Below are positions 1 through 25,553 of a DNA stretch of 64,000 nt, piece after piece. Both the position numbers and the translations under genes were made by a program. The stretch is from an uncultured Gemmatimonadales bacterium (GTDB lineage Bacteria; Gemmatimonadota; Gemmatimonadetes; Gemmatimonadales; Gemmatimonadaceae). The stretch is taken from contig CAWKNZ010000004.1 of NCBI GenBank assembly GCA_963851265.1, forward strand, positions 1 to 64,000, in the 5' to 3' direction. Each line of letters begins with the position of its first letter. Within the stretch, counting starts at the first letter, position 1. Below the pieces are notes generated by a model. It made no database searches. It worked only from the letters and a program-made list of their open reading frames with translations, and had not been told where the DNA came from.

Positions 1-1319
1 CGCGGGCCCACGAGCGACATGTCGCCGCGTACCACGTTCCACAGCTGCGGCAGTTCGTCGAGCGACGTGCGGCGCAGCAACGCGCCGAACGGCGTCACAC
101 GCGGGTCGCGGGCGATCTTGAACACCGGCCCGCCCGCCTCGTTTTGTGATTCGAGCGCCGCTTGCCGCTGCTCCGCGTCGACGACCATCGTGCGGAACTT
201 GTACATGCGGAAGTGGCGCTTGCGATACCCGTAGCGGTGCTGCGCGAAGAGGATCGGGCCCGGACTCGACATCCGGACGCAGAGCGCGATCACGAGCAGA
301 ACCGGCGACAGCAATACGAGCCCCGCGGCCGCGCCGACGATGTCGACCGCCCGTTTGGCGACGAGGCGCCAATCGTCGACGACGACGTGCATCGACACCG
401 CGGGGAACTGACCACTCGTACCCGAGCGCGCGCGGGCGACCTTGGGAGCGACGGGATCGGCGAGAAATCGCGCGTGCACGCCGGCCTGCTCGCAGGTCGT
501 GAGCACCGTCTCGATCTCATCGTACCGCGAGCGCACGGGGAGGGCGACGAACACCTCGTCGACGACCGTGTGCATCATGAACGTCGCGAGCCGGTCGACC
601 GCCACACCCAACGCGCCGCCGAATGACGCTCCGCACAGCGCTTCCGGAACGTCCGTGACGGCGACGAGGCGATACTCCACCGTGGGATCGTCGCGCAGCT
701 GCGTCCACAGCGCGCGCGCGCGCGGGCCGGTCCCGGCGACGACGACGTGAATCGGGCCACCGCGGCGGAGCCGAATCGTCGCGCGCGCGGCGAGTCGCAC
801 CGCCGCCGTTCCAACGACGAGTCCACACCAGACGAGGACGACGACCGCCGCACGTAAGTGTCCGCTGTCCGTCACCCACGGCAGCAGGACGGCGGGAACC
901 GCGGCGAGCGTACAGCCGCCGAGCGTGTTCGCCACGAGCTCGCGGAAGGTCGGCGAGCGGGCGGCGTCGTAGCCCCCGGTTAGGCGCAGCGCGGCGGATG
1001 CCCACGCCAGCAGCGCGGCCACGAAAAGGCCATTCCGCACGCTGATGCGCAGCGAGAAGAACTCCGCCGCGCCGCGCGGCAGCTGCACGCCTTCCATCAG
1101 CACGACGCACGCGAACAGCACGGCGAGCGTCATCGCGACGTCGACACCGGGCGTCCACGTCGCGAGCCACAAGCCAGGGGCCTCCTCGGAACCGCTGCCG
1201 GTGGTGTCCCACGCGCCGACAGCGGCCGCCGCACGTCGGTCCGGGTGGGCGACACGCGGCTGTGCGTAAGAGTCGACCGGCTCCGGCCGCCGCTCGGGCG
1301 CCGTCTCAATCAACTGCAT
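1..1319 (-). CDS. Polyprenyl-phosphate sugar phosphotransferase (WcaJ/ExoY-like priming glycosyltransferase), 3' end runs off window
   Basis: Manual translation of minus strand: MQLIETAPE..., N-terminal hydrophobic segments, then FRMYKFRTM...[41 protein letters not shown] (Bac_transf motifs); GGAG upstream of ATG at 1319. Absent from ORF track because no stop in window. Confidence 0.9.
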   Translation of the reverse strand, partial: [439 protein letters not shown]

Positions 1320-1773
1320 GTCGCATCTCCAAACGACTCGGGAAGGCGGGAGTCGTCGCTATACGGGACCGGGTGGGGAGGTCCCAAGACATGGTCGCGC
1401 GTGTTGTGGGAGTACCGCGGCGCATGCCGAACGCGCGATTATTGTATAAGTGCTTCTTAATCGTCGCGCGTGGCCTGCGACAAACATCCTATTACGTCCG
1501 CGTCACGAGCACAATACCGATCTGACGCTGTTTTTTGCCAGCACCGACAGGCAGCGTTCCTGTTGCAGTCACGATCGCGTGCACCGTCGACAACGTAGCA
1601 GTTCTGTTACGCTGCCATGTACCGGGCTGGCACCTGCGCTCGTGTTGTATCGCGGCCCTTCCCCACCGTTCTCCGCTGCGACGCGGCCGAACGATCGCTG
1701 CGGTGGGGAGGGTCTTCTCGCGCAATCCATGCGCGAGGAAGCTCCGGTCATCCGCGCGACCGACCCGCGCTCC

Positions 1774-2928
1774 TCACCGACGTTCGCCAGCCGGGAAACC
1801 CGCGAACACGGTCGGTTCGCCTCCTGCGGGCTCGGCCCGCTCCCCCGCCCCCACCTCCACCCCCTCATCCACCACCCCCCGCACCACCCGCCCCCCCGCC
1901 CGCACCACCACCCCGTCCAGCAGCACGCTCTCCCGCACCTCCGCCCCCGCCTCCACCACCACCCCCGGCCCGAGCACCGACCGCTCCACCACCCCCGCCA
2001 CCGTCGCCCCCGGCGACACCAGCGCGTCGTCCACCCGCGCCGTCCGCGCGATCCGCGCCGGCATCCGCACCACGCTCGCCGTCCGCACCGGCCACGCCGG
2101 GTCGTCGACCACCAGCGCCGGCGCGTCGCCTAACAGATCCATGTGCCCGCGCCAGTAACTCTCCACCGTGCCCACGTCGCGCCAGTAGCCCGCGTGCGCG
2201 AACGCCCGCGCGCCGCCCTCCGCGACCAGCGCCGGCACCAGGTGGTCGCCGAAGTCGCCCAGGTGCGCGTCGTCGCCGCCCGCGCGCGTCACGTCCGCGT
2301 GCAGCCGCTCGAGCGTGGCCAGCAGGTGCGGCACGTCGTACACGAACACCTCCGTCGCCGCCGTCGTCCCCTCCGGCCGCTCCGGCTTCGACGCGAAGCG
2401 CGTCACGCGCCCGTCCGCCCCCACCCCGACGATGCCGAACCGGTGCGCCTCCGCGGCCGCCACCTCGGTCGTCACCACGGTGAGCCGCGCCGACGCGTCG
2501 CGGTGCGCGTCCAGCACGTCGCGCAGGTCGATCCGCTCCACGTGGTCGGCGCTCATCACCACGAGCTGGTCCGCCGCGAACTCCCGCATCAACGCGCGCG
2601 ACCGCCACAGCACGTCCGCGTTCCCCTCGGCGAACCCCTCGCCCTCCGCGCCCGTGAACGGCGGCAGCACGCGCAGGCCGCCCACGTTGCGGTCGAGGTC
2701 CCACGGGCGCCCGTTCAACAGATGGTCGTTGAGCGCGTGCGGCTGGTACTGCTCCACCACCCACACGTCACTCAGCCCGCTGTGGACGCAGTTGCTGAGC
2801 GCGAAGTCGATCAGCCGGTAGACGCCGGCGAAGGAAAGCGCGGGCTTCGCGCGGTGCGCGGTGAGGGGGCCGAGTCGGGAACCCTTGCCGCCGGCGAGGA
2901 CGAGGGCGAGAACTTTGGGGCGTCGCAT
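1774..2928 (-). CDS. glgC: Glucose-1-phosphate adenylyltransferase family protein
   Basis: VLAGGKGSRL, RAKPA, YRLIDFALSNC, YWRDVGT motifs and C-terminal hexapeptide repeats; start placed at MRRPK. Confidence 0.85.
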   Translation of the reverse strand: MRRPKVLALVLAGGKGSRLGPLTAHRAKPALSFAGVYRLIDFALSNCVHSGLSDVWVVEQYQPHALNDHLLNGRPWDLDRNVGGLRVLPPFTGAEGEGFAEGNADVLWRSRALMREFAADQLVVMSADHVERIDLRDVLDAHRDASARLTVVTTEVAAAEAHRFGIVGVGADGRVTRFASKPERPEGTTAATEVFVYDVPHLLATLERLHADVTRAGGDDAHLGDFGDHLVPALVAEGGARAFAHAGYWRDVGTVESYWRGHMDLLGDAPALVVDDPAWPVRTASVVRMPARIARTARVDDALVSPGATVAGVVERSVLGPGVVVEAGAEVRESVLLDGVVVRAGGRVVRGVVDEGVEVGAGERAEPAGGEPTVFAGFPAGERR

Positions 2929-3056
2929 GCCCCCGCCATCGCAAGGCACTTGCCCGACGCACGACGCCCCCGGCCGGATGGTGCGGCCGAGGGCGTCACG
3001 TTACAGCACGTACAAAAGCGGCTCACGCCGGCGGTGGCGCCGGCACGCCGCGGGCC

Positions 3057-4814
3057 CTACTGCCGGCAGGTGCCCCGCGGATCCGGCTTCGGTTGATCCA
3101 CCACCACACGGTGGTCGAGGTTCGCCACCTTCTGCGCGATGTCGTAGACGAGGTTGTCCACCCGCGCCATCCGGTCGTAGTCGATGTACTCCGGCTCGTC
3201 GGTCACCTGGTGGTAGTCCGAGTGCCCGCCCGTCGTGAAGAACACGATCGGGATGCCGTAGCGCGCGTACTCGTAATGATCGCTCCGGCAGTAAATGTTC
3301 ATCGGGTGGCCGTTCGCGTCCATCGAGTAGTCGAACACGAAGTTCGACTTGTCGTCCTTGTTCACCTGCTCGACGATGTTCCCCAACTCGGTCGAGAGGC
3401 GGCGCGAGCCGACGAGCTGCAGGTAGTCCGGGCCGCCGTGCAGCACCTGCCCGTCCTTCGACAGCCCCGTGACGTCGCTCGCCGAGCCGCGGCCGACCAT
3501 GTCCATGTTGAGCTGCGCGACGATCGAGTCGCGCGGCACCGTCGGGTGATCGGTGTAGTACTCGCTGCCCAACAGCCCCTTCTCCTCGCCCACGTGCCAC
3601 ACGAAGAGGATGGAGCGCTTGGGCCGCGCGTCGCCCTTGAGCGAGGCGAACTTCTCTGCCACCTCGAGCACGCTCACCGAGCCCGAGCCGTCGTCGTCGG
3701 CGCCGTTGCTGATGCTGTCGGCGCGCGTCGACCCCGGGTGCGCCTTGCGGTAGTCGGCGAGCATCTGATCGACCCGCGCCTGCTGCTCGGGCGTCGCTTC
3801 CTTCCCCTGGTCCTCGGCCCCTTCGGGACGCACCAGGTGGTTGTAGATGCGGATCGAGTCGTGGTCGACGGCGCGGCCGGCGTACCCGATGTGGTCGTTG
3901 TGCCCGCCGACGGCGACGTACTCGCCGGCGAGCGACGGGTCGCGGCCGGGGAGGATGGCGACGACGTTGCGCGCGGGGAACGGCACCGGCGTCACGTTCA
4001 GCTTGATGTCGACCGTGACCGGACGCCCCGGGGCGCCGGGCGCGAGCCCCGCCACCGGCGCGGAGAACAGCTGCTGCCCCGCGCTCGGCGCGAGGAACAC
4101 GGTCGTCGGCCCGGTGCGCGCGCCGGCCGTCTTGCTCGGATCGTCGACGAACTGCGCCGGGCGGCTGAGGATCGGGATGTAGCGCTCGTCGATGCCGTAC
4201 CCGGCGACCACCGCGGCCTGCGGGTACAGGCGCGCGAGCCCGCGGCGCATGAGGCGCAGCGACTGCGGCGTGAGCGTGAAGACGACCATCTTCCCGACGG
4301 TCTGCTCCGGCGCGATCATCGACGCGGAGTCGCCGAGGGTGCCGCCGTAGACGACGGGCAGGTCGTGCAGCGAGACGCTCGTGAGCCCCGCCGCCGCCCA
4401 GTCGTGGCCCGCGACCAGGCGCGCCGGCGTGCCGGTGCCGCCGATGACGATGGCCGACGAGGGGTCGACCGCGCGGATCTTGAACGGCAGCGTCTGGAAA
4501 TAGCCGCCGTTCTCGCCGGCGGGCTTGAGCCCGAGGCGGCGCACCTCGCTCGCGATGTAGTCGGTGCCCTTGACGTTGCCGAGCGTCCCGGCCTCGCGCC
4601 CCATCATCGAGTCGTCGGCGAAGATGTAGAGACGGGTCATCAGGTCCGCGGCCGTGATGGCGGCGGTGGTCGGCTGCGGCGCGTGCTTGAGCGGGAGCGC
4701 GGTGGCGGGCGGCGGGACCGCGTCGGCGGCGGCCTGCGCGCGCGCGCGCGCCAGCGGCGCGATGGCGAGGGCGGCGGCAGCGGTCAGCGCGCCGAGGCGT
4801 GCAATACGTGACAT
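3057..4814 (-). CDS. Secreted M28 family metallopeptidase
   Basis: Signal peptide; HNDH, NGADDDGSG, GEEKGLLGS, NMDMVGR, SDH, YH zinc-binding motifs. Confidence 0.88.
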   Translation of the reverse strand: MSRIARLGALTAAAALAIAPLARARAQAAADAVPPPATALPLKHAPQPTTAAITAADLMTRLYIFADDSMMGREAGTLGNVKGTDYIASEVRRLGLKPAGENGGYFQTLPFKIRAVDPSSAIVIGGTGTPARLVAGHDWAAAGLTSVSLHDLPVVYGGTLGDSASMIAPEQTVGKMVVFTLTPQSLRLMRRGLARLYPQAAVVAGYGIDERYIPILSRPAQFVDDPSKTAGARTGPTTVFLAPSAGQQLFSAPVAGLAPGAPGRPVTVDIKLNVTPVPFPARNVVAILPGRDPSLAGEYVAVGGHNDHIGYAGRAVDHDSIRIYNHLVRPEGAEDQGKEATPEQQARVDQMLADYRKAHPGSTRADSISNGADDDGSGSVSVLEVAEKFASLKGDARPKRSILFVWHVGEEKGLLGSEYYTDHPTVPRDSIVAQLNMDMVGRGSASDVTGLSKDGQVLHGGPDYLQLVGSRRLSTELGNIVEQVNKDDKSNFVFDYSMDANGHPMNIYCRSDHYEYARYGIPIVFFTTGGHSDYHQVTDEPEYIDYDRMARVDNLVYDIAQKVANLDHRVVVDQPKPDPRGTCRQ

Positions 4815-19516: not shown

Positions 19517-20476
19517 CTACGCCCCCTCGATCTGTCCCGTCATCAGCGGCTGCCCGGTTGGCCGCGGCGACCCGCCGTCGGGCTCCTCGGTGACCGCGGC
19601 CACCTGCATCTCGGCCTCGGGCGGCACGTGCAGGACCACCTGCACCCGCCCGTTCTCCTCTGGCGTGAAGGTGCCGAGGCTCTGCGGCTGCCCGCCCTTC
19701 GCGATGCCCCAGAGTTGGTAGGTGCGCCCCGCGTGCGGCCGCGGCATTGCCGACGCCGTGAGCAGTACGGCGCCCTGCCCCGGGCTCCAGATCAGGCGCG
19801 CCGCTGCCGGCTCGCCCGGGACCGCGAGCCGTGCGGTGCGCGCGTCGGGTGCGGTCACGACGGCGAGGAGCGAGTCGCGCGCGCGGTCGACCAGCGCGCC
19901 CCGGCGCCGGACGCGGGCGGCGAGTTCCTGCAGGGTGCCGAGTGCGCGCTCGCGCTCCGCGAGGCGGACCTGGCGCTCGCGCGCCCACCCCGCGCCGAGG
20001 CCGGCGGCGAGCGCGAGGCACGCGGCGGCCGCGTACCAGGGCGCCCACGCGGTCGGACGTCGCGCCGGGGTGATCGCGCGGATCGACGACGTCGCCGTGC
20101 GCGGGCGGAGCGGCTGTGCGGCGGTCGCGGGGGCGTCGGGCGCTGTCGTGGCGGGGGCGGTCGTGGCGGGGGCGGTCGTGGCGGGGGCGGTCGTGGCGGG
20201 GGACGGGTTGGCCCGCGCTTCGGACAGGATGCGCGCGCGCAGCGACGGCGAGGGCGACTGCGAGGGCGACTCGGCCCCCGCCTCGCGGGCCAGCAGCACG
20301 CCGACGTCGCGGAACTGGCGCACCTCGGCCGCGCACCGCGCACAGCCCGCCAGGTGCGCCTCGAACGCGGCGCGCTCGTCGGCGTCGAGCGCGCCCAGCG
20401 CGTACGCCGCCGCGTCGTCGGCCCACGGCGCGTGGTCGTGCGCGTTGGGCAGGGCGCCCGCCGGCCCGCCCGTCAC
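19517..20476 (-). CDS. Anti-sigma factor (zf-HC2 + TM + RskA-like C-terminal domain)
   Basis: AAYALGAL, HLAGCARC (HxxxCxxC), TM helix, YQLW, AVTEEPDGGSPRPTG. Confidence 0.87.
   Translation of the reverse strand: MTGGPAGALPNAHDHAPWADDAAAYALGALDADERAAFEAHLAGCARCAAEVRQFRDVGVLLAREAGAESPSQSPSPSLRARILSEARANPSPATTAPATTAPATTAPATTAPDAPATAAQPLRPRTATSSIRAITPARRPTAWAPWYAAAACLALAAGLGAGWARERQVRLAERERALGTLQELAARVRRRGALVDRARDSLLAVVTAPDARTARLAVPGEPAAARLIWSPGQGAVLLTASAMPRPHAGRTYQLWGIAKGGQPQSLGTFTPEENGRVQVVLHVPPEAEMQVAAVTEEPDGGSPRPTGQPLMTGQIEGA
20145..20202. repeat. In-frame 15-bp tandem repeat (ATTAP x4) in anti-sigma linker
   Basis: GTCGTGGCGGGGGCG units at 20145, 20160, 20175, 20190. Confidence 0.9.
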
Positions 20477-21198
20477 GCGTCGCCCCCCGCCGCGGCCGCG
20501 GGGCGCATCGCCTCGCGGAGCTTGAGCAGTCCCGTGCGGATGCGCGTCTTGACGGTGCCTAACGGCTGGCCGAGCGCGGCGGCGACGTCGGCGTGCGAGA
20601 GCCCGCCGAAGAAGGCCAGCTCGATCGCGCGGCGCTGCGGCTCGGGCAGCGCGGCGAGCGAGCCGCGCACCGCGCGCGCCGCCTCCGCGCGCTCCACCGC
20701 CGCGTCGGGCGCCTCGGGGCTCCCGCCTAACGGGACGGCGGTGGCGGCCGTGCCGGCCGGCGCGAGCGCGGCCGCGTCGCCGGCGGCGCGCTCCTCCAGG
20801 CGTACGCGGCGGCGCCGCGCGCGCACGTGGTCGAGCGCCCGGGCGCGGGTCACCATCGTCACCCACGCGGCCACGCTTCCGCGCGCCGCGTCGTAGCGCG
20901 CCGCGGTGCGCCAGAGCTGCGCGAACACCGCGGCCGTCACGTCGTCGGCCTCGTCGGCCGCCCCGCCGACCAGCACGCGGGCGAAGCGGTGCGCGTCGGC
21001 GCCGAACCGGTCGTACAGGGTGCCGAGCGCCTCGGCGTCGCCGGCCGCGACGCGCGCCACGAGGGCCGCGTCCGCCGTCGGGCCGGCCGCCGCGTCGGAC
21101 GGTGCAACGCCGCCGCCCGCGAGGTCGGCTTGCGTGACGGGCGGCGGAGGATCGTCCACACGGACCGGAACGGGTTGGAGCGCGGGGCGATCGGTCAC
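20473..21198 (-). CDS. ECF sigma-70 factor (SigK-like)
   Basis: GDAEALGTLYDR, LWRTAARYD..RGS, LPEPQRRAIELAFFGGLSH, PLGTVKTRIR; start uncertain (GTG 21198 or 21159). Confidence 0.87.
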   Translation of the reverse strand: MTDRPALQPVPVRVDDPPPPVTQADLAGGGVAPSDAAAGPTADAALVARVAAGDAEALGTLYDRFGADAHRFARVLVGGAADEADDVTAAVFAQLWRTAARYDAARGSVAAWVTMVTRARALDHVRARRRRVRLEERAAGDAAALAPAGTAATAVPLGGSPEAPDAAVERAEAARAVRGSLAALPEPQRRAIELAFFGGLSHADVAAALGQPLGTVKTRIRTGLLKLREAMRPAAAAGGDA

Positions 21199-21263
21199 GA
21201 GCGGCGCGGGGGCGAAGGTCGCCGCAACATCGCCCCCGCCGGGCCGGACGGCAACGGCCGAGT

Positions 21264-21845
21264 TCAGTGCGCGGCCGCCGGAAACAGCTTCGCGTACTGC
21301 CCGTACCCTTCCGCCCGCAGCCGGTCGGCGGGGACGAACCGCATCGCCGCCGAGTTCATGCAGTAGCGCAGCCCGGTGGGCGCGGGTCCGTCGTCGAACA
21401 CGTGCCCGAGGTGCGAGTTGGCGTGGGTCGACCGGACTTCGGTGCGCTCCATGCCGAGGGTGTGGTCGTCGGCGCGCCGCACGTTGGCCGGCTCGAGCGG
21501 CCGCGTGAAGCTCGGCCACCCGGTGCCCGACTCGAATTTGTCGCGCGAGCTGAATAGCGGCTCGCCGCTCACCACGTCGACGTAGATGCCGTCGCGGTGG
21601 TTGTCCCAGTACTCGTTGCGGAACGGCGGCTCGGTCTCGCTCTGCTGCGTGACCGCGTACTGCAGCGGCGTGAGGCGGCGGCGGAGCGCGGCGCTGTCGC
21701 GCGTCCCGCCGTCCCGCGCGCCGGCGGTCGCCACGGCGGTACGAAGGTCCGCCCGCCGCGCCGGCGCCGGTTGGGCACCGGCCGCCGCGGCCGCGAGTCC
21801 CGCCGCGAGCGCGAACGAGGCTCTGGTCATGGTGAACGATCGCAT
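21264..21845 (-). CDS. msrB: Peptide-methionine (R)-S-oxide reductase with N-terminal signal peptide
   Basis: [30 protein letters not shown]; Ala-rich signal-like N-terminus; no Zn CxxC pairs. Confidence 0.93.
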
Positions 21846-21880
21846 CGGCCGTGTGCTCCCGGAAAAAGGCGCCAGCGCGA

Positions 21881-22495
21881 TTACATCGCGGGCATGAGGA
21901 CCTTGTCGACGACGTGGATCACGCCGTTGGACTGCCGCACGTCATACGTCGAGATCTCGGCCACGTTCCCCTGCGCGTCCTTGAGGACGACGTTGCGCGG
22001 GCCGTTCATCATCGCGGTGAGCGTGCCGCCGCTGACCGTCTTGAGCGTGGCCGTGCCGCCGCCGGCGCGGATCGCGCTCATGATCGCGGCCGCGTCCATG
22101 TTGCCCGCCACCACGTGGTAGGTGAGAATCTTGGTCAGCGCGGCCTTGTTCTCGGGCTTGAGCAGGTTGTCGACCGTGCCGGCCGGCAGCACCGCGAACG
22201 CCTCGTTGGTCGGCGCGAAGACGGTGAACGGGCCCTTGCCCTTCAGCGTCTCGACGAGCCCCGCGGCCTTGACGGCGGCGACGAGCGTCGTGTGGTCGGC
22301 CGAGTTGACGGCGTTGTCGACGATGTCCTTGTTGGGGTACATCGCCTGGCCGCCGACCATCACGGTGCCGGGCGTCATGCGCGCGGCGCCTTCCATGTGG
22401 CCCTGCTGCATCTGGGCGGCGAGCGGCGCGACGGCGGCACCGGTGCTGAGGGCGGCGACGACGACGGCGTTGGCGAGAATCGACTTGAGCTGCAT
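21881..22495 (-). CDS. Secreted fasciclin (FAS1) domain protein (MPT70/83-like)
   Basis: Signal peptide; [28 protein letters not shown]. Confidence 0.92.
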
Positions 22496-22554
22496 GCGAG
22501 CGTCCTGGTGAGAGCGTGAAGGTTGAAGCCCATCGCTGCCGGGCTCACCAGGGC

Positions 22555-22580
22555 TACGCCGCACGCGGGCAACTGGATTG
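22555..22580 (-). promoter_or_regulatory. Putative ECF (SigK-type) promoter CAATCC-N15-GCGTA upstream of fasciclin-msrB-sigma-antisigma
   Basis: Minus strand reads CAATCC agttgcccgcgtgcg GCGTA about 60 bp before fasciclin ATG; resembles mycobacterial SigK consensus CCATCC-N15-CCGAA. Confidence 0.55.
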
Positions 22581-22588
22581 GTGCCGCG

Positions 22589-23005
22589 TCACCCGGGGGG
22601 GTGCGGCCGCTCGCTCATGAGGCCCACGAGGTTGCCCTCGCTGTCGCGGATGAAGCCCATCCACAGCTCGTGGTCGGGCATGCGCGCGATCATGTGCGGC
22701 GCCCCCGCCGGCGCGGCGCCGCGCGCGACCACCGCCGCGTAGGTCGCGTCGAGGTCCGCGGTGCGGTAATAGAGGACCGACGTGCCGGGCGCCGGGCTGC
22801 CGTCGGCCGGCGTCTCGGCGGGCGTGAGCATCAGGCGCACGCCGCCCGCGTCGAAGAAGGCGAGCGCCGGTGCGCCGTCGGGGCCGGGCGCGGCGAAGAG
22901 GAATGGCAGGCCGAGCACGTCGCGGTAGAACGCCGTGGCGCGCGCGACGTCGGCGGCGACGACCGCGATCTGGCCGATGCCGGAGAGCGATGGGGTGGCG
23001 GGCAT
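22589..23005 (-). CDS. VOC/glyoxalase family protein
   Basis: IGQIAV...ATAFYRDVLGL, LAFFDAGGVRLML, FIRDSEGNLVGLMSE. Confidence 0.87.
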   Translation of the reverse strand: MPATPSLSGIGQIAVVAADVARATAFYRDVLGLPFLFAAPGPDGAPALAFFDAGGVRLMLTPAETPADGSPAPGTSVLYYRTADLDATYAAVVARGAAPAGAPHMIARMPDHELWMGFIRDSEGNLVGLMSERPHPPG

Positions 23006-23054
23006 GAGGGCGTTGGGCAGGTCGGGTACGCGAGCAGTCGCCCCGGTGATGCGA

Positions 23055-23570
23055 CTAGTACGGCCCAGCCGGGCCCCGCGCTAGCGCCCGCGCGCGCCCG
23101 CGCGCGCCCGCTGTCCCCTCGCGCGCCGTCACCCCGCCCAACAGCAGGAAGCCCACGCCCCCGACCGCCAGAAACAGCCAGTCGTAGAGCGGCACGTGCG
23201 CCGGCACGTCCACCACGTGGTGCAGTTGCAGCAGGTGGTGGTCGATCACCCCCTCGACGAGGTTGAACAGCCCCCAGCCCGCGAGCAGCTGTCCGGCGAA
23301 GCGGCGGCCGTTGGGCGTGGCGCCCCGCCGGCCGGCCGCCCACAGCGTCACCACGCCCGCGACGACGATCGCCCACGAGCCGGCGTCGAAGAACCCGTCG
23401 GCGGTCATGTTCTCGCGCATGGCCGCCATCGACGTGGGCGGGATGCGCGCCGAGAGCATGTTGTGCCACTGCAGGATCTGGTGCAGCAGCCACCCGTCGA
23501 CGAGTCCGCCGAGCCCGACCCCGAGGACGAGGCCGGGCGCGGCGGCGCCGCCGGAGCGGCGGTCGGTCAT
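23055..23570 (-). CDS. DUF2243 membrane protein
   Basis: GLGGLVDGWLLHQILQWHNM, GWGLFNLVEGVIDHHLLQLHHV; ATGA overlap with catalase gene. Confidence 0.83.
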   Translation of the reverse strand: MTDRRSGGAAAPGLVLGVGLGGLVDGWLLHQILQWHNMLSARIPPTSMAAMRENMTADGFFDAGSWAIVVAGVVTLWAAGRRGATPNGRRFAGQLLAGWGLFNLVEGVIDHHLLQLHHVVDVPAHVPLYDWLFLAVGGVGFLLLGGVTAREGTAGARGRARALARGPAGPY

Positions 23571-24448
23571 GCCTCGCCGGTGATGGCGTGCTTGATGGTG
23601 CCGAGGATGCCGGTCGCCGCCGTCATCTGCTCCTTTTGCGCGAAGGCGGCCGGGACGGGTGCGGCGAGCGTCGGCTCGCTGCCGAACGGCTTGGCCGGGC
23701 GCACGCTGTACTCGCCCTTGCCGTCGAGGGACGGGCCCTGTGTGTAGCGGCCCCGAAGCGGCTCGACGTCGTCGCCGATGCGCGTGTCGTAGAACACGTA
23801 GCTGTGCTCCTTGAGCTCCGACTCGGGCGGGTTGTCGTTCGGGATGGGGAGCTGCTGCTCGTACCCGCCGAGTTCCTCGATCACGGCGAGCCACTGCTGC
23901 TGGTGCATCGTGTCGCGCGCGATGTGGAAGGCGAGCAGGTCGCGCATCCCGGTGTCCGTGGTCATGTGCCACAGCCGCGTCGCGAGCACGCGCCCGGTCG
24001 CCTCGGCGGCGACGTTGGCGTACATGTCTGCGGCGATGTTCCCGCTCGCGTAGACGTGCGACATGTTGAACGGCACCCCGTTCGCGTTCTCACCCGTCGC
24101 CGCAAAACCGGCCGAGAGATAGTGGCGGAGATTCATCCCGCCGAGCACGCAGTTGACGGCGCCGTCCTTCGCGGCCTCCTCCTGCAGCTGGGTGGGCGCG
24201 CCCTCGAGGAGGAGCGCCACGGCGGTGGCGAGGTTCTCGACGTGCGAGATCTCCTCGGCGGCCACGGAGAGCAGCATGTCGCGGTACTTCTTGGGGCCGC
24301 GCTGCCCCCAGGCCTGAAAGAGGTACTGCATCATCACGCGGATCTCGCCCTCGACGCCGCCGATCGCCTGCTGCATGGCGCGGGCGAAGATCGGGTCGGG
24401 CCTATCGACGCGGACCTTGTACTGGAGCTTTCCGTCGGTGTAGAACAC
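23567..24448 (-). CDS. Manganese catalase family protein
   Basis: GEIRVMMQY, AEEISHVE, NVAAE, RDTMHQ; GGAGG upstream of GTG at 24448. Confidence 0.9.
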   Translation of the reverse strand: MFYTDGKLQYKVRVDRPDPIFARAMQQAIGGVEGEIRVMMQYLFQAWGQRGPKKYRDMLLSVAAEEISHVENLATAVALLLEGAPTQLQEEAAKDGAVNCVLGGMNLRHYLSAGFAATGENANGVPFNMSHVYASGNIAADMYANVAAEATGRVLATRLWHMTTDTGMRDLLAFHIARDTMHQQQWLAVIEELGGYEQQLPIPNDNPPESELKEHSYVFYDTRIGDDVEPLRGRYTQGPSLDGKGEYSVRPAKPFGSEPTLAAPVPAAFAQKEQMTAATGILGTIKHAITGEA

Positions 24449-24563: not shown

Positions 24564-24953
24564 TCAGGCGGACCGGCTGGCCGCGCGCCTGGCGCCCTTG
24601 GCCGCGGTCTTGGCGGCGCCCTTGGCGGCCGTCTTGGACCCGCCCTTGGCGGCGGCCTTCGTCGCCGACTTCCCGGCGGTCTTCGCGGCACCCTTGGCCG
24701 CGGACTTGGCGGCCGTCTTGGCCGCGCCCTTCGCGGCGCCCTTCGCCGGCGCCTTGGCGGCGGGGCGCGACTCGGGGGCGAGACCGGGGTTGGCGCGCCG
24801 GTGCTTGCGGAGCTCGCCGATGAGCCGGTCGAGCACGGCGGCGGTGCCCTCGCCGCCGGCGCGCTCGCGGGCCATGAACTCGGCGGCGGTCTTGCTGATC
24901 CAGACCGTGGTCTGGTCGGCGCGGTACTTGGAGTAGCGGTCGGCGCTCGGCAT
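24564..24953 (-). CDS. Small basic protein: putative ribbon-helix-helix domain + histone H1-like (xAAK)n tail
   Basis: TTVWISKTAAEFMARERAGGEGTAAVLDRLIGEL has beta-alpha-turn-alpha RHH pattern; C-terminal Lys/Ala 4-mer repeats; GGGAG RBS. Confidence 0.75.
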   Translation of the reverse strand: MPSADRYSKYRADQTTVWISKTAAEFMARERAGGEGTAAVLDRLIGELRKHRRANPGLAPESRPAAKAPAKGAAKGAAKTAAKSAAKGAAKTAGKSATKAAAKGGSKTAAKGAAKTAAKGARRAASRSA

Positions 24954-24977
24954 GGCGGGCTCCCGGGTGTGGGGTCA

Positions 24978-25119
24978 CGTTAGGACCAACTCATTAGGAA
25001 TATTCCTAACGTCGGCAAACTGTGCGTATGGGGCGCAATCCGCAACCATAGCCTAACAAACGCGCCCAACGCGGCGCCCCGGCGCCCGCCCAACGGGCGC
25101 CCAACGGCCCCGCCCAACG
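24978..25119. promoter_or_regulatory. Operator-like array: 16-bp palindrome TTAGGAATATTCCTAA plus repeated CC(T/C)AAC boxes
   Basis: CGTTAGGA 24978; palindrome 24994-25009; GCCTAAC 25051; GCCCAACG at 25064, 25088, 25099, 25112; AT-rich relative to flanks. Confidence 0.7.
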
Positions 25120-25264: not shown

Positions 25265-25426
25265 ATGACCAAACTCCTCGGGTCGGTCGGCGCGTTCGCC
25301 GGCAGCAGCGCCGGCTGGGCCGCCGGCGAGGGCGCGGGCATCTTCACCGCGTTCGTCCTCAGCGTCGTCGGCACCGGCGTCGGGCTCTACCTCGGCCGGC
25401 GCGTCGCCCGCCACCTCGGGCTCTAG
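25265..25426 (+). CDS. 53-aa Gly-rich small membrane protein
   Basis: MTKLLGSVGAFAGSSAGWAAGEGAGIFTAFVLSVVGTGVGLYLGRRVARHLGL; GC3-rich codons; below ORF-track cutoff. Confidence 0.7.
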   Translation: MTKLLGSVGAFAGSSAGWAAGEGAGIFTAFVLSVVGTGVGLYLGRRVARHLGL

Positions 25427-25446
25427 GCCGCGGCCGGGCGGCGCCG

Positions 25447-25506
25447 GGGCGCACGACGAGACGGGGGCCCCCACGCGCGTGGGGGCCCCCGTCTCGTCGT
25501 GCGCCC
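25447..25506. terminator. Perfect 60-bp palindrome between convergent genes (possible bidirectional terminator)
   Basis: GGGCGCACGACGAGACGGGGGCCCCCACGC|GCGTGGGGGCCCCCGTCTCGTCGTGCGCCC. Confidence 0.65.
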
Positions 25507-25553
25507 GGTCGGGACCGCGCTGTAGCGCTACAGCGCCACAGCGCCCGCCCGCG

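Follow-up and report, generated by a model that had tools for sequence, protein, structure and literature searches.

The window analysed here (the whole stretch of 64,000 nt, G000:C4:1-64000) belongs to a soil bacterium with a 4.6-Mb genome of roughly 73% GC, over whose chromosome the heptamer GTTAGGC occurs in about 1,800 copies. Upstream of a small minus-strand gene, designated RHH-H1, lies an array of copies of this word arranged around a predicted promoter (Table 1), with one perfect GTTAGGC and four weak GTTGGGC sites upstream and three variant boxes near +1. Read toward the gene, the order is four GTTGGGC, GTTAGGC, 5 bp, TTGCGG, 17 bp and CAGTTT, followed by 5 bp, CGTTAGGAATATTCCTAAT, 8 bp, CCTAACG, the leader, GGGAG and the start codon. 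Counted from the perfect GTTAGGC, the weak sites are spaced by 13, 24, 11 and 13 bp. Every element stands where the original prediction had placed it.

Table 1. Features of the RHH-H1 locus (positions in the window unless residues are given)
Feature	Position	Strand	Remarks
Mn catalase gene	23567..24448	-	Downstream of RHH-H1; named by Pfam
RHH-H1 gene	24564..24953	-	129-aa protein P0001
N-terminal RHH domain, predicted	Residues: helix 4-14, extended TTVWIS 15-20, helices 21-30 and 37-54		Part of P0001
Tail	Residues about 62-129		Lys/Ala-rich (AAK-rich), histone-H1-like
Ribosome-binding site GGGAG, predicted	24960..24964	-	Invariant in 6 aligned promoters
CGTTAGGA	24978-24985	+	Proximal variant site in the predicted 5' leader, 25 bp from the gene start at 24953; CCTAACG on the gene strand, with CTAACG invariant in 6/6 aligned promoters
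Palindrome TTAGGAATATTCCTAA	24994-25009		16 bp, perfect; inverted pair of word cores
Inverted core pair with extended arm CCTAACG	24994..25011	None	Predicted +1 to +18
-10 element CAGTTT, predicted	25017..25022	-	CAnnnT/TAnnnT across homologs; from conservation
-35 element TTGCGG, predicted	25040..25045	-	17 bp from -10; invariant in 6/6
GCCTAAC	25051-25057	-	Gene strand reads perfect GTTAGGC; starts 12 bp upstream of the predicted -35
GCCCAACG (CGTTGGGC on the minus strand)	25064, 25088, 25099, 25112-25119	-	Four weak sites, direct repeat
53-aa glycine-zipper-like membrane peptide gene	25265..25426	+	Divergent from RHH-H1

The neighbors of RHH-H1 in the window (Mn catalase, DUF2243, the glycine-zipper peptide and TldD/PmbA) are replaced by others in relatives. 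The Mn catalase gene is a variable neighbor, absent beside the ortholog in G004, and lies outside the system. The 53-aa gene is likewise regarded as a neighbor only, because loci without it still have the array beside the RHH gene. A role for RHH-H1 as a type II toxin-antitoxin antitoxin was rejected, as the downstream gene varies among homologs and none is toxin-like in the loci read. Downstream of the gene, positions 19517-24448 hold a stress-type cluster whose members were named by eye from their translations save for two Pfam cases: an anti-sigma/ECF sigma pair, MsrB-like, fasciclin-like and glyoxalase-like genes, DUF2243 (Pfam) and the Mn catalase (Pfam). A strong inverted repeat at 25454-25499, between the convergent 53-aa and PmbA/TldD genes, is likely a two-way terminator; six sub-threshold Rfam matches fall on the terminator-like hairpin at 25444-25533. 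Rfam gave no match over the array.

Rarity of the array in the genome

The original prediction had described the densest cluster of the motif in the window, a claim that extends beyond chance to the whole genome. The 1,925 TTAGG cores of the 4.6-Mb genome comprise 1,875 singletons, 23 pairs and one cluster of four, which is the array and the sole cluster of at least three cores. Also within the array are the only TTAGG-N2..12-CCTAA of the 4.6 Mb and the only run in the whole genome of at least three GCCCAACG/CGTTGGGC within 70 bp. A search for the palindrome allowing up to three mismatches gave a single match in the 64,000-nt window and none in 100 shuffles. Five exact-plus-near sites within 200 bp upstream occur at only one of the 3,707 genes called in the present analysis. 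Within the array the CGTTAGGC octamer is absent and a perfect GTTAGGC is found only once. When the pattern is relaxed to three GTTRGG with gaps within 22 bp, three other places in the genome match, as do many in relatives (20 in G001 and 11 in G004), so the uniqueness of the array is limited to this genome and to the strict definition.

Predicted promoter

A sigma70-type promoter, TTGCGG-N17-CAGTTT, is predicted for RHH-H1 from the conservation of its hexamers. The general form TTG-N16/18-YAnnnT was matched in 20 of 26 homolog promoters, and in 14 of these 20 a perfect forward site begins 12-19 bp upstream of the -35 element; a further promoter (L063) shows a like arrangement of site and -35, though the script chose a different hexamer there. 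Two other promoter types were considered and rejected, a sigma54 promoter because its spacing is not found (GG-N9-GC) and an ECF-type GGAAT...GTT promoter because it is not fully conserved.

Conservation of the array among homologs

In six aligned orthologous promoters from the genus's own lineage, the spacers have drifted, but the boxes, the -35 element and the leader show no change. The perfect GTTAGGC is the most conserved element of the array (6/6), and three to five weak sites are found upstream in all six rows as well as in G076, a genome of another genus. Three of the six rows carry a 13-14-bp insertion at the proximal site, which produces an extra site. The cores of the inverted pair are separated by N6 here and by N7 in five relatives. 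The palindrome, which the original prediction had listed among the elements, was seen only in the genus's own lineage, and a role for it as the key element is not supported. One check that the prediction had set, the presence of the boxes upstream of orthologs, came out in its favor: they are kept there and belong to the promoter of the gene.

Homolog promoters from genome and metagenome loci gave 43 distinct rows, which fall into 13 clusters at 85% identity (hereafter, lineages). Of the 13 lineages, 8 show an exact site in the 200 bp before the gene, versus 317 of the 3,707 control genes (the gene set called here), and 6 show a forward site at -126..-78, versus 44 of 3,707 (control window -125..-60); p-values for these comparisons are overstated because the clusters are related in the tree. 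The exact upstream sites include contigs without any other copy of the word (L150, L153 and L155), and arrays of various forms are found at L127-L133. The site in G126 overlaps the stop codon of the upstream gene, a common place for the word. A de novo word search over the 13 lineages returned GTTAGGC as the main shared signal, and no other shared operator-like word emerged from it. Clusters without an exact site are a clade of genus g60 whose homologs are tailless, L125, L134, L138 and L156, the last three with one near match each. In the tailless g60 clade the protein is nearly invariant; the exact site is found in none of 20 rows (two with short upstream sequence), and the upstream DNA holds one GTTGGGC or decayed forms only.

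In G076, where the neighbors also differ, GTTGGGC at an 11-bp period is followed by GTTAGGC and then by TTGCAA-N16-TACGTT, without a TTAGG palindrome. The only GTTGGGC-GTTGGGC-GTTAGGC run in its 7.5 Mb adjoins the homolog, just upstream. That the array stands beside the homolog without synteny argues that it follows the gene rather than the locus.

These comparisons bear on whether the array could be a by-product, in which slippage multiplied word units in a GC-rich spacer, the genome being rich in the word, and the palindrome was kept as a transcript-stabilizing 5' RNA hairpin. Tandem GTTRGGC arrays with 10-15-bp periods do stand beside unrelated genes (G139, G202, G001), and in 6/6 rows the inverted core pair could give the RNA a weak hairpin at its predicted 5' terminus, with a G-U pair tolerated in two. 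Against this, the cores are fixed and the spacers differ within the own-genus lineage, the perfect site keeps its place and direction across distant lineages and neighborhoods, the hairpin has weak z-scores (-0.6 to -2.1), and no compensatory changes were seen in its arms among the six aligned promoters. We consider a by-product improbable; the inverted pair is likely an operator.

The RHH-H1 protein

The conserved head of the protein comprises 58 aa, and tailless homologs of 58-70 aa exist. When 1.84 billion representatives were searched with the profile, 18 matches reached E <=0.001, tailless forms among them; the homolog records bear the names Gemmatirosa and Gemmatimonadaceae, and no viral homologs were found. 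Chance profile matches were left uncounted, namely those in G074 (a 1,944-aa frame), G538 and G543, and ten at E 0.03-0.09. The T-x-W-x-S ribbon (T16, W18, S20) is invariant in 27/27 rows.

A structure model built from nine rows was all-helix. The model built from 27 rows (pLDDT 75.9) has an extended segment at 15-20 and helices at 21-30 and 37-54, in strand-helix-helix order and with an alternating ribbon pattern. Its list of structural matches is led by RHH proteins, although with a best Z of 4.7 none reaches 5, and includes CdbA (Z 4.5, rmsd 3.6, 47 aligned), NikR, AmrZ, Arc, MatP and omega. A Foldseek search with the first protein model gave no match. In the atlas, a tailless homolog scored 0.90-0.93 and its ten best named matches belong to one clan, RHH; the head of the window protein itself had only unnamed or sub-0.9 matches. 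Neither Pfam nor PHROG has a family for the window protein; PF02697 was found weakly in 8 of 19 homolog rows (E 0.0099-0.015), and a sequence search of solved structures returned chance rows only (E 0.5-1.4). The original prediction's assignment of the adjacent protein to the RHH class is likely right, as judged from the 27-row model, the structural list, the atlas clan and the PF02697 matches in homologs, and the whole protein is likely an RHH domain joined to a histone-H1-like tail.

H1-like tails were also noted elsewhere in the genome: in an unassigned helix-turn-helix-like protein (G000:C3:194320-194802, L239), which has three identical-scoring copies in G076 and a homolog in only one of five genomes searched, and in a SWIB-domain protein (G000:C2:317990-318568, L240).

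Genome-wide distribution of GTTAGGC

In G000, CGTTAGGC occurs 1,396 times and GTTAGG about 1,850 times. Whole-genome counts of CGTTAGGC show no Chi-like strand bias (708 versus 688), and 100-kb stretches of contig C2 are skewed. Among the gene calls, 1,020 of 1,283 TTA codons lie inside GTTAGG. A codon-context model shows an excess of GTTAGGC in each of the four frames open to it, whichever strand is read (ln odds 3.8-5.7), with the sense strand slightly ahead; for GTTGGGC the excess is about 2-5-fold and extends to all six coding frames (ln odds 0.7-1.5). Enrichment across frames and strands implies that the signal acts on DNA, and the enrichment of GTTGGGC in its own right marks the four GCCCAAC boxes of the array as weak versions of the genome-wide word, which bears out their proposed tie to the dispersed motif.

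Word spacings below 200 bp are depleted (59 observed versus 143 expected), and close site pairs are rare, a direct spacing of 12 bp being the only peak. In intergenic DNA the density of the word stays level ahead of starts (0.08-0.34 per kb), with no pile-up at start codons, and the word is not a general promoter element. The pattern of site plus promoter was found in the intergenic DNA of G000 at RHH-H1 only; together with the level density, this agrees with a factor that regulates mainly its own gene.

Several places stand out in their use of the word. One 45-kb stretch of normal GC (G000:C1:182876-227963) has no GTTAGG, where about 18 would be expected. The nusG gene (Pfam; G000:C5:306932-307471, L241) has two sense-strand GTTAGGC in its short upstream spacer, which, with the greater sense-strand enrichment, makes a link of the word to transcription possible. 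Intergenic tandem repeats with 10-13-bp units, each containing GTTRGG, lie beside unrelated genes at L116, L120 (G202), L115 (G139) and L081 (G019). GTTAGG-N7-CCTAAC stands just past the 3' end of an integrase-like gene (L055, G012:C182:738-755), a possible attachment site.

In the family-wide table, genera differ in the final base of the word. The ratio of CGTTAGGC to CGTTAGGD is 12-64 in ten rich genomes that bear the gene, 2-4 in genera g9, g28 and g84, and below 1 in g33 and g56; g66 and g52 are strict too (9-23), without an RHH-H1 gene. We know of nothing that reads the word. Neither CGTTAGGC nor GCCTAACG was found as a whole word, and no published description of the word, the array or the protein was found, in the literature searched (main texts, few of them from subscription journals); the accessible part of PMC11237797 does not contain the term 'motif'.

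Distribution of the gene and the word among genomes

The family was surveyed by a profile search of 251 Gemmatimonadaceae genomes with scoring of the best 25 candidates of each genome; among the 251, the unpublished G011, G246 and G265 contribute only word-poor, gene-less rows. About a quarter of the genomes (69/251) hold at least 400 CGTTAGGC. True homologs were found, among the best 25 candidates per genome, in 11 of the 251, ten of which have 1,396-4,469 CGTTAGGC. The eleventh, G126, has 91, yet its top heptamer is GTTAGGC (14 versus 1.0 expected in 377.5 kb, with 7 of 9 TTA codons), and the word is still selected there. Over the whole order, 9 of 401 genomes gave true matches. Within genus g60, five gene-bearing genomes are rich in the word (3,244-4,141) and four gene-less ones are poor (4-66); no syntenic locus was found in the poor members, and the association in g60 is possibly a single event. 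Overall, about three independent lineages underlie the co-occurrence of gene and word.

Every genome with the gene also shows selection for the word, but most word-rich genomes lack a detectable copy. Among the best 25 candidates per genome, no homolog was found in 59 of the 69 word-rich genomes, including 22 with a completeness of at least 97%, and homologs were found in 3 of 22 word-rich genera; a search of 60 relatives in which nearly all candidates were scored likewise found none in the word-rich G008, G012, G027 and G031. A gene found in only 10 of 69 word-rich genomes cannot encode the family-wide reader, so a second reader or cause must exist, and it could equally own the array. The link that the original prediction drew between the adjacent protein and the dispersed motif therefore holds at best for some lineages, in view of these genomes and of the single weak or decayed site in g60.

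A different and more widespread factor may accordingly read GTTAGGC, with the RHH-H1 gene as its target and the RHH protein binding some other sequence; the perfect site upstream of -35 would then be an activator or repressor position. The many word-rich genomes without a homolog speak for such a factor, as do a distance of 12-19 bp from the -35 element, which suits an activator, and the g60 clade, which keeps the protein and not the perfect site. It is opposed by the lack of a regulon signature, the site-plus-promoter pattern being confined to one gene of G000. Nor did the same pattern, searched in ten word-rich gene-less genomes, reveal a shared small DNA-binding gene in the 39 of 67 matched loci that were read, and no other operator-like word is at hand for the invariant ribbon of a protein class in which autoregulation is common. 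We regard this explanation as rather unlikely, yet as the strongest rival of the autoregulatory reading. The array pattern was also searched in 41 genomes, where no RHH gene was found outside G076. PF02697 and PF24434 were tried as analogous readers in five gene-less word-rich genomes each and rejected, the matches being a long-frame fragment and, ahead of a PIN-like gene, an ordinary antitoxin-like gene.

Proposed function of the array

On balance, the array is probably an operator by which a chromatin protein, itself the reader of the genome-wide word, regulates its own gene. The adjacent RHH protein would be its simplest owner, given the invariant ribbon, the lack of any other shared word upstream of its homologs and the lack of any other G000 gene with the promoter pattern. 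A perfect site beside the -35 element, together with weak sites and sites around +1, would suit a cytoplasmic reader of double-stranded DNA and would not be explained by an uptake receptor.

It is hypothesized that the RHH protein represses its own gene through the array around the predicted promoter and also reads the roughly 1,800 single GTTAGGC sites across the chromosome. One RHH dimer would contact one non-palindromic heptamer through the invariant T-W-S ribbon face, as omega does with heptads, and the basic H1-like tail would add non-specific DNA binding, the result being a nucleoid protein that is guided by sequence to single sites forming a lattice. Chromosomal sites would fill first, and only then would free protein load the array, cooperatively, from the perfect site to the weak sites, which lie roughly a helical turn from one another, and on to the sites around +1, shutting the promoter. 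Loading in this order would allow the array to match the level of the protein to the number of sites. We propose more tentatively, as a view that may well prove wrong, that RHH-H1 is a sequence-specific chromatin protein, that GTTAGGC is its address label, introduced into genes in hundreds to thousands of copies despite codon preference, and that the array is a titration switch. Since most word-rich genera are without the gene, the protein would be a lineage-limited reader, possibly one that took over a word already present, rather than the cause of the word across the family.

The array would provide the first evidence here that some intracellular protein recognizes, at a promoter, both the word and its weak variant, and a domain of 58 residues can be named as the candidate. 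Should the proposal hold, RHH-H1 would be the first identified cytoplasmic reader of the hyper-abundant word, which would then be one of the rare genome-wide DNA words whose reader is known, with RHH-H1 as a self-titrating chromatin protein; the word itself would be recast from an uptake tag to a chromosome-architecture code with different readers in different Gemmatimonadaceae lineages. If the RHH protein is not the reader, the array could still serve as bait for the true one.

Comparison with known systems

The core consensus of integron attC sites is GTTRRRY. The word has the letters of this core, and in word-poor relatives its clustered copies are integron attC ends, as in the long attC arrays of L056 (G039:C95:1-20000) and L057 (G037:C3:1-9000), whose ends are clustered CGTTAGGC. 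Integron-like cassette arrays are also present in G000 itself (C10:193000-213300 and C6:490-1700), with small toxin-antitoxin-like cassettes and attC bounded by GCCTAAC/GCCCAAC and GTTAGG. TTAGG-N4-CCTAA boxes before an mntH-like gene (L237, G120:C78:707966-708030) and as a tandem pair (L053, G029:C188:4664-4695) are likely DtxR/MntR-type operators that share the core of the word.

We judge it very improbable that the array is itself a site of a known system, be it a parS-like centromere of an RHH ParB, an integron attachment site or a DtxR/MntR box for the Mn catalase. The first, in line with the 'centromere-like' label of the original prediction, draws on RHH centromere proteins that bind heptad arrays over their own promoters (PMC9499535), but no ParA/ParM was found among the neighbors and the repeats are spaced by 11-24 bp rather than standing as at least four contiguous heptads, and the label is better dropped. 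An integron site would account for the letters of the word and for CGTTAGGC as attC end in relatives; however, the polarity TTAGG...CCTAA is opposite to that of attC, and the array is without attC hairpin polarity, a cassette or an integrase nearby. A DtxR/MntR box has TTAGG/CCTAA arms in its consensus (PMC7762939) and the Mn catalase lies downstream of the gene, but the core spacing is N6/N7, versus N4 before the mntH-like gene or N9 in the consensus, a search of G000 (94% complete) for PF02742 proteins found none, and the Mn catalase is not a fixed neighbor.

HupB/Hlp, AlgP and Hc1 carry histone-H1-like tails that are Lys/Ala-rich, of low complexity and basic. The tail of RHH-H1 is of the same kind, but is fused to an RHH-like head and is absent in part of its family (the 58-70-aa forms). 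As with DUS/USS and HIP1, the short word is enriched in all possible frames and on both strands, and its close spacings are depleted; it differs from cyanobacterial HIP1 in being non-palindromic, and from DUS/USS in that its promoter-locked perfect and weak sites point to a cytoplasmic double-strand reader rather than a surface uptake receptor.

The closest likenesses are to two RHH proteins. Omega, the ParB of pSM19035, binds heptad arrays that overlap its own promoter, and parS of RHH partition systems needs at least four contiguous heptads (PMC9499535). The array resembles this arrangement in its RHH-class protein, its non-palindromic 7-bp unit and its direct and inverted repeats over the protein's own promoter; it differs in being chromosomal, with no ParA partner nearby, in repeats spaced by 11-13 bp versus the contiguous ones of omega, and in its graded perfect and weak sites, the roughly 1,800 further single sites across the genome and the basic tail. 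In Myxococcus xanthus, 569 ChIP peaks have been recorded for the RHH nucleoid protein CdbA (PMC7156744). With the role proposed for it, RHH-H1 would likewise be a small RHH nucleoid protein with hundreds of sites inside and between genes and with direct repeats one helical turn apart, although here the word is exact, mostly single and written against codon usage, and the protein has an H1-like tail. By analogy, the array likely works like the promoter heptad arrays of omega, combined with a CdbA-like nucleoid role, while belonging to neither system.
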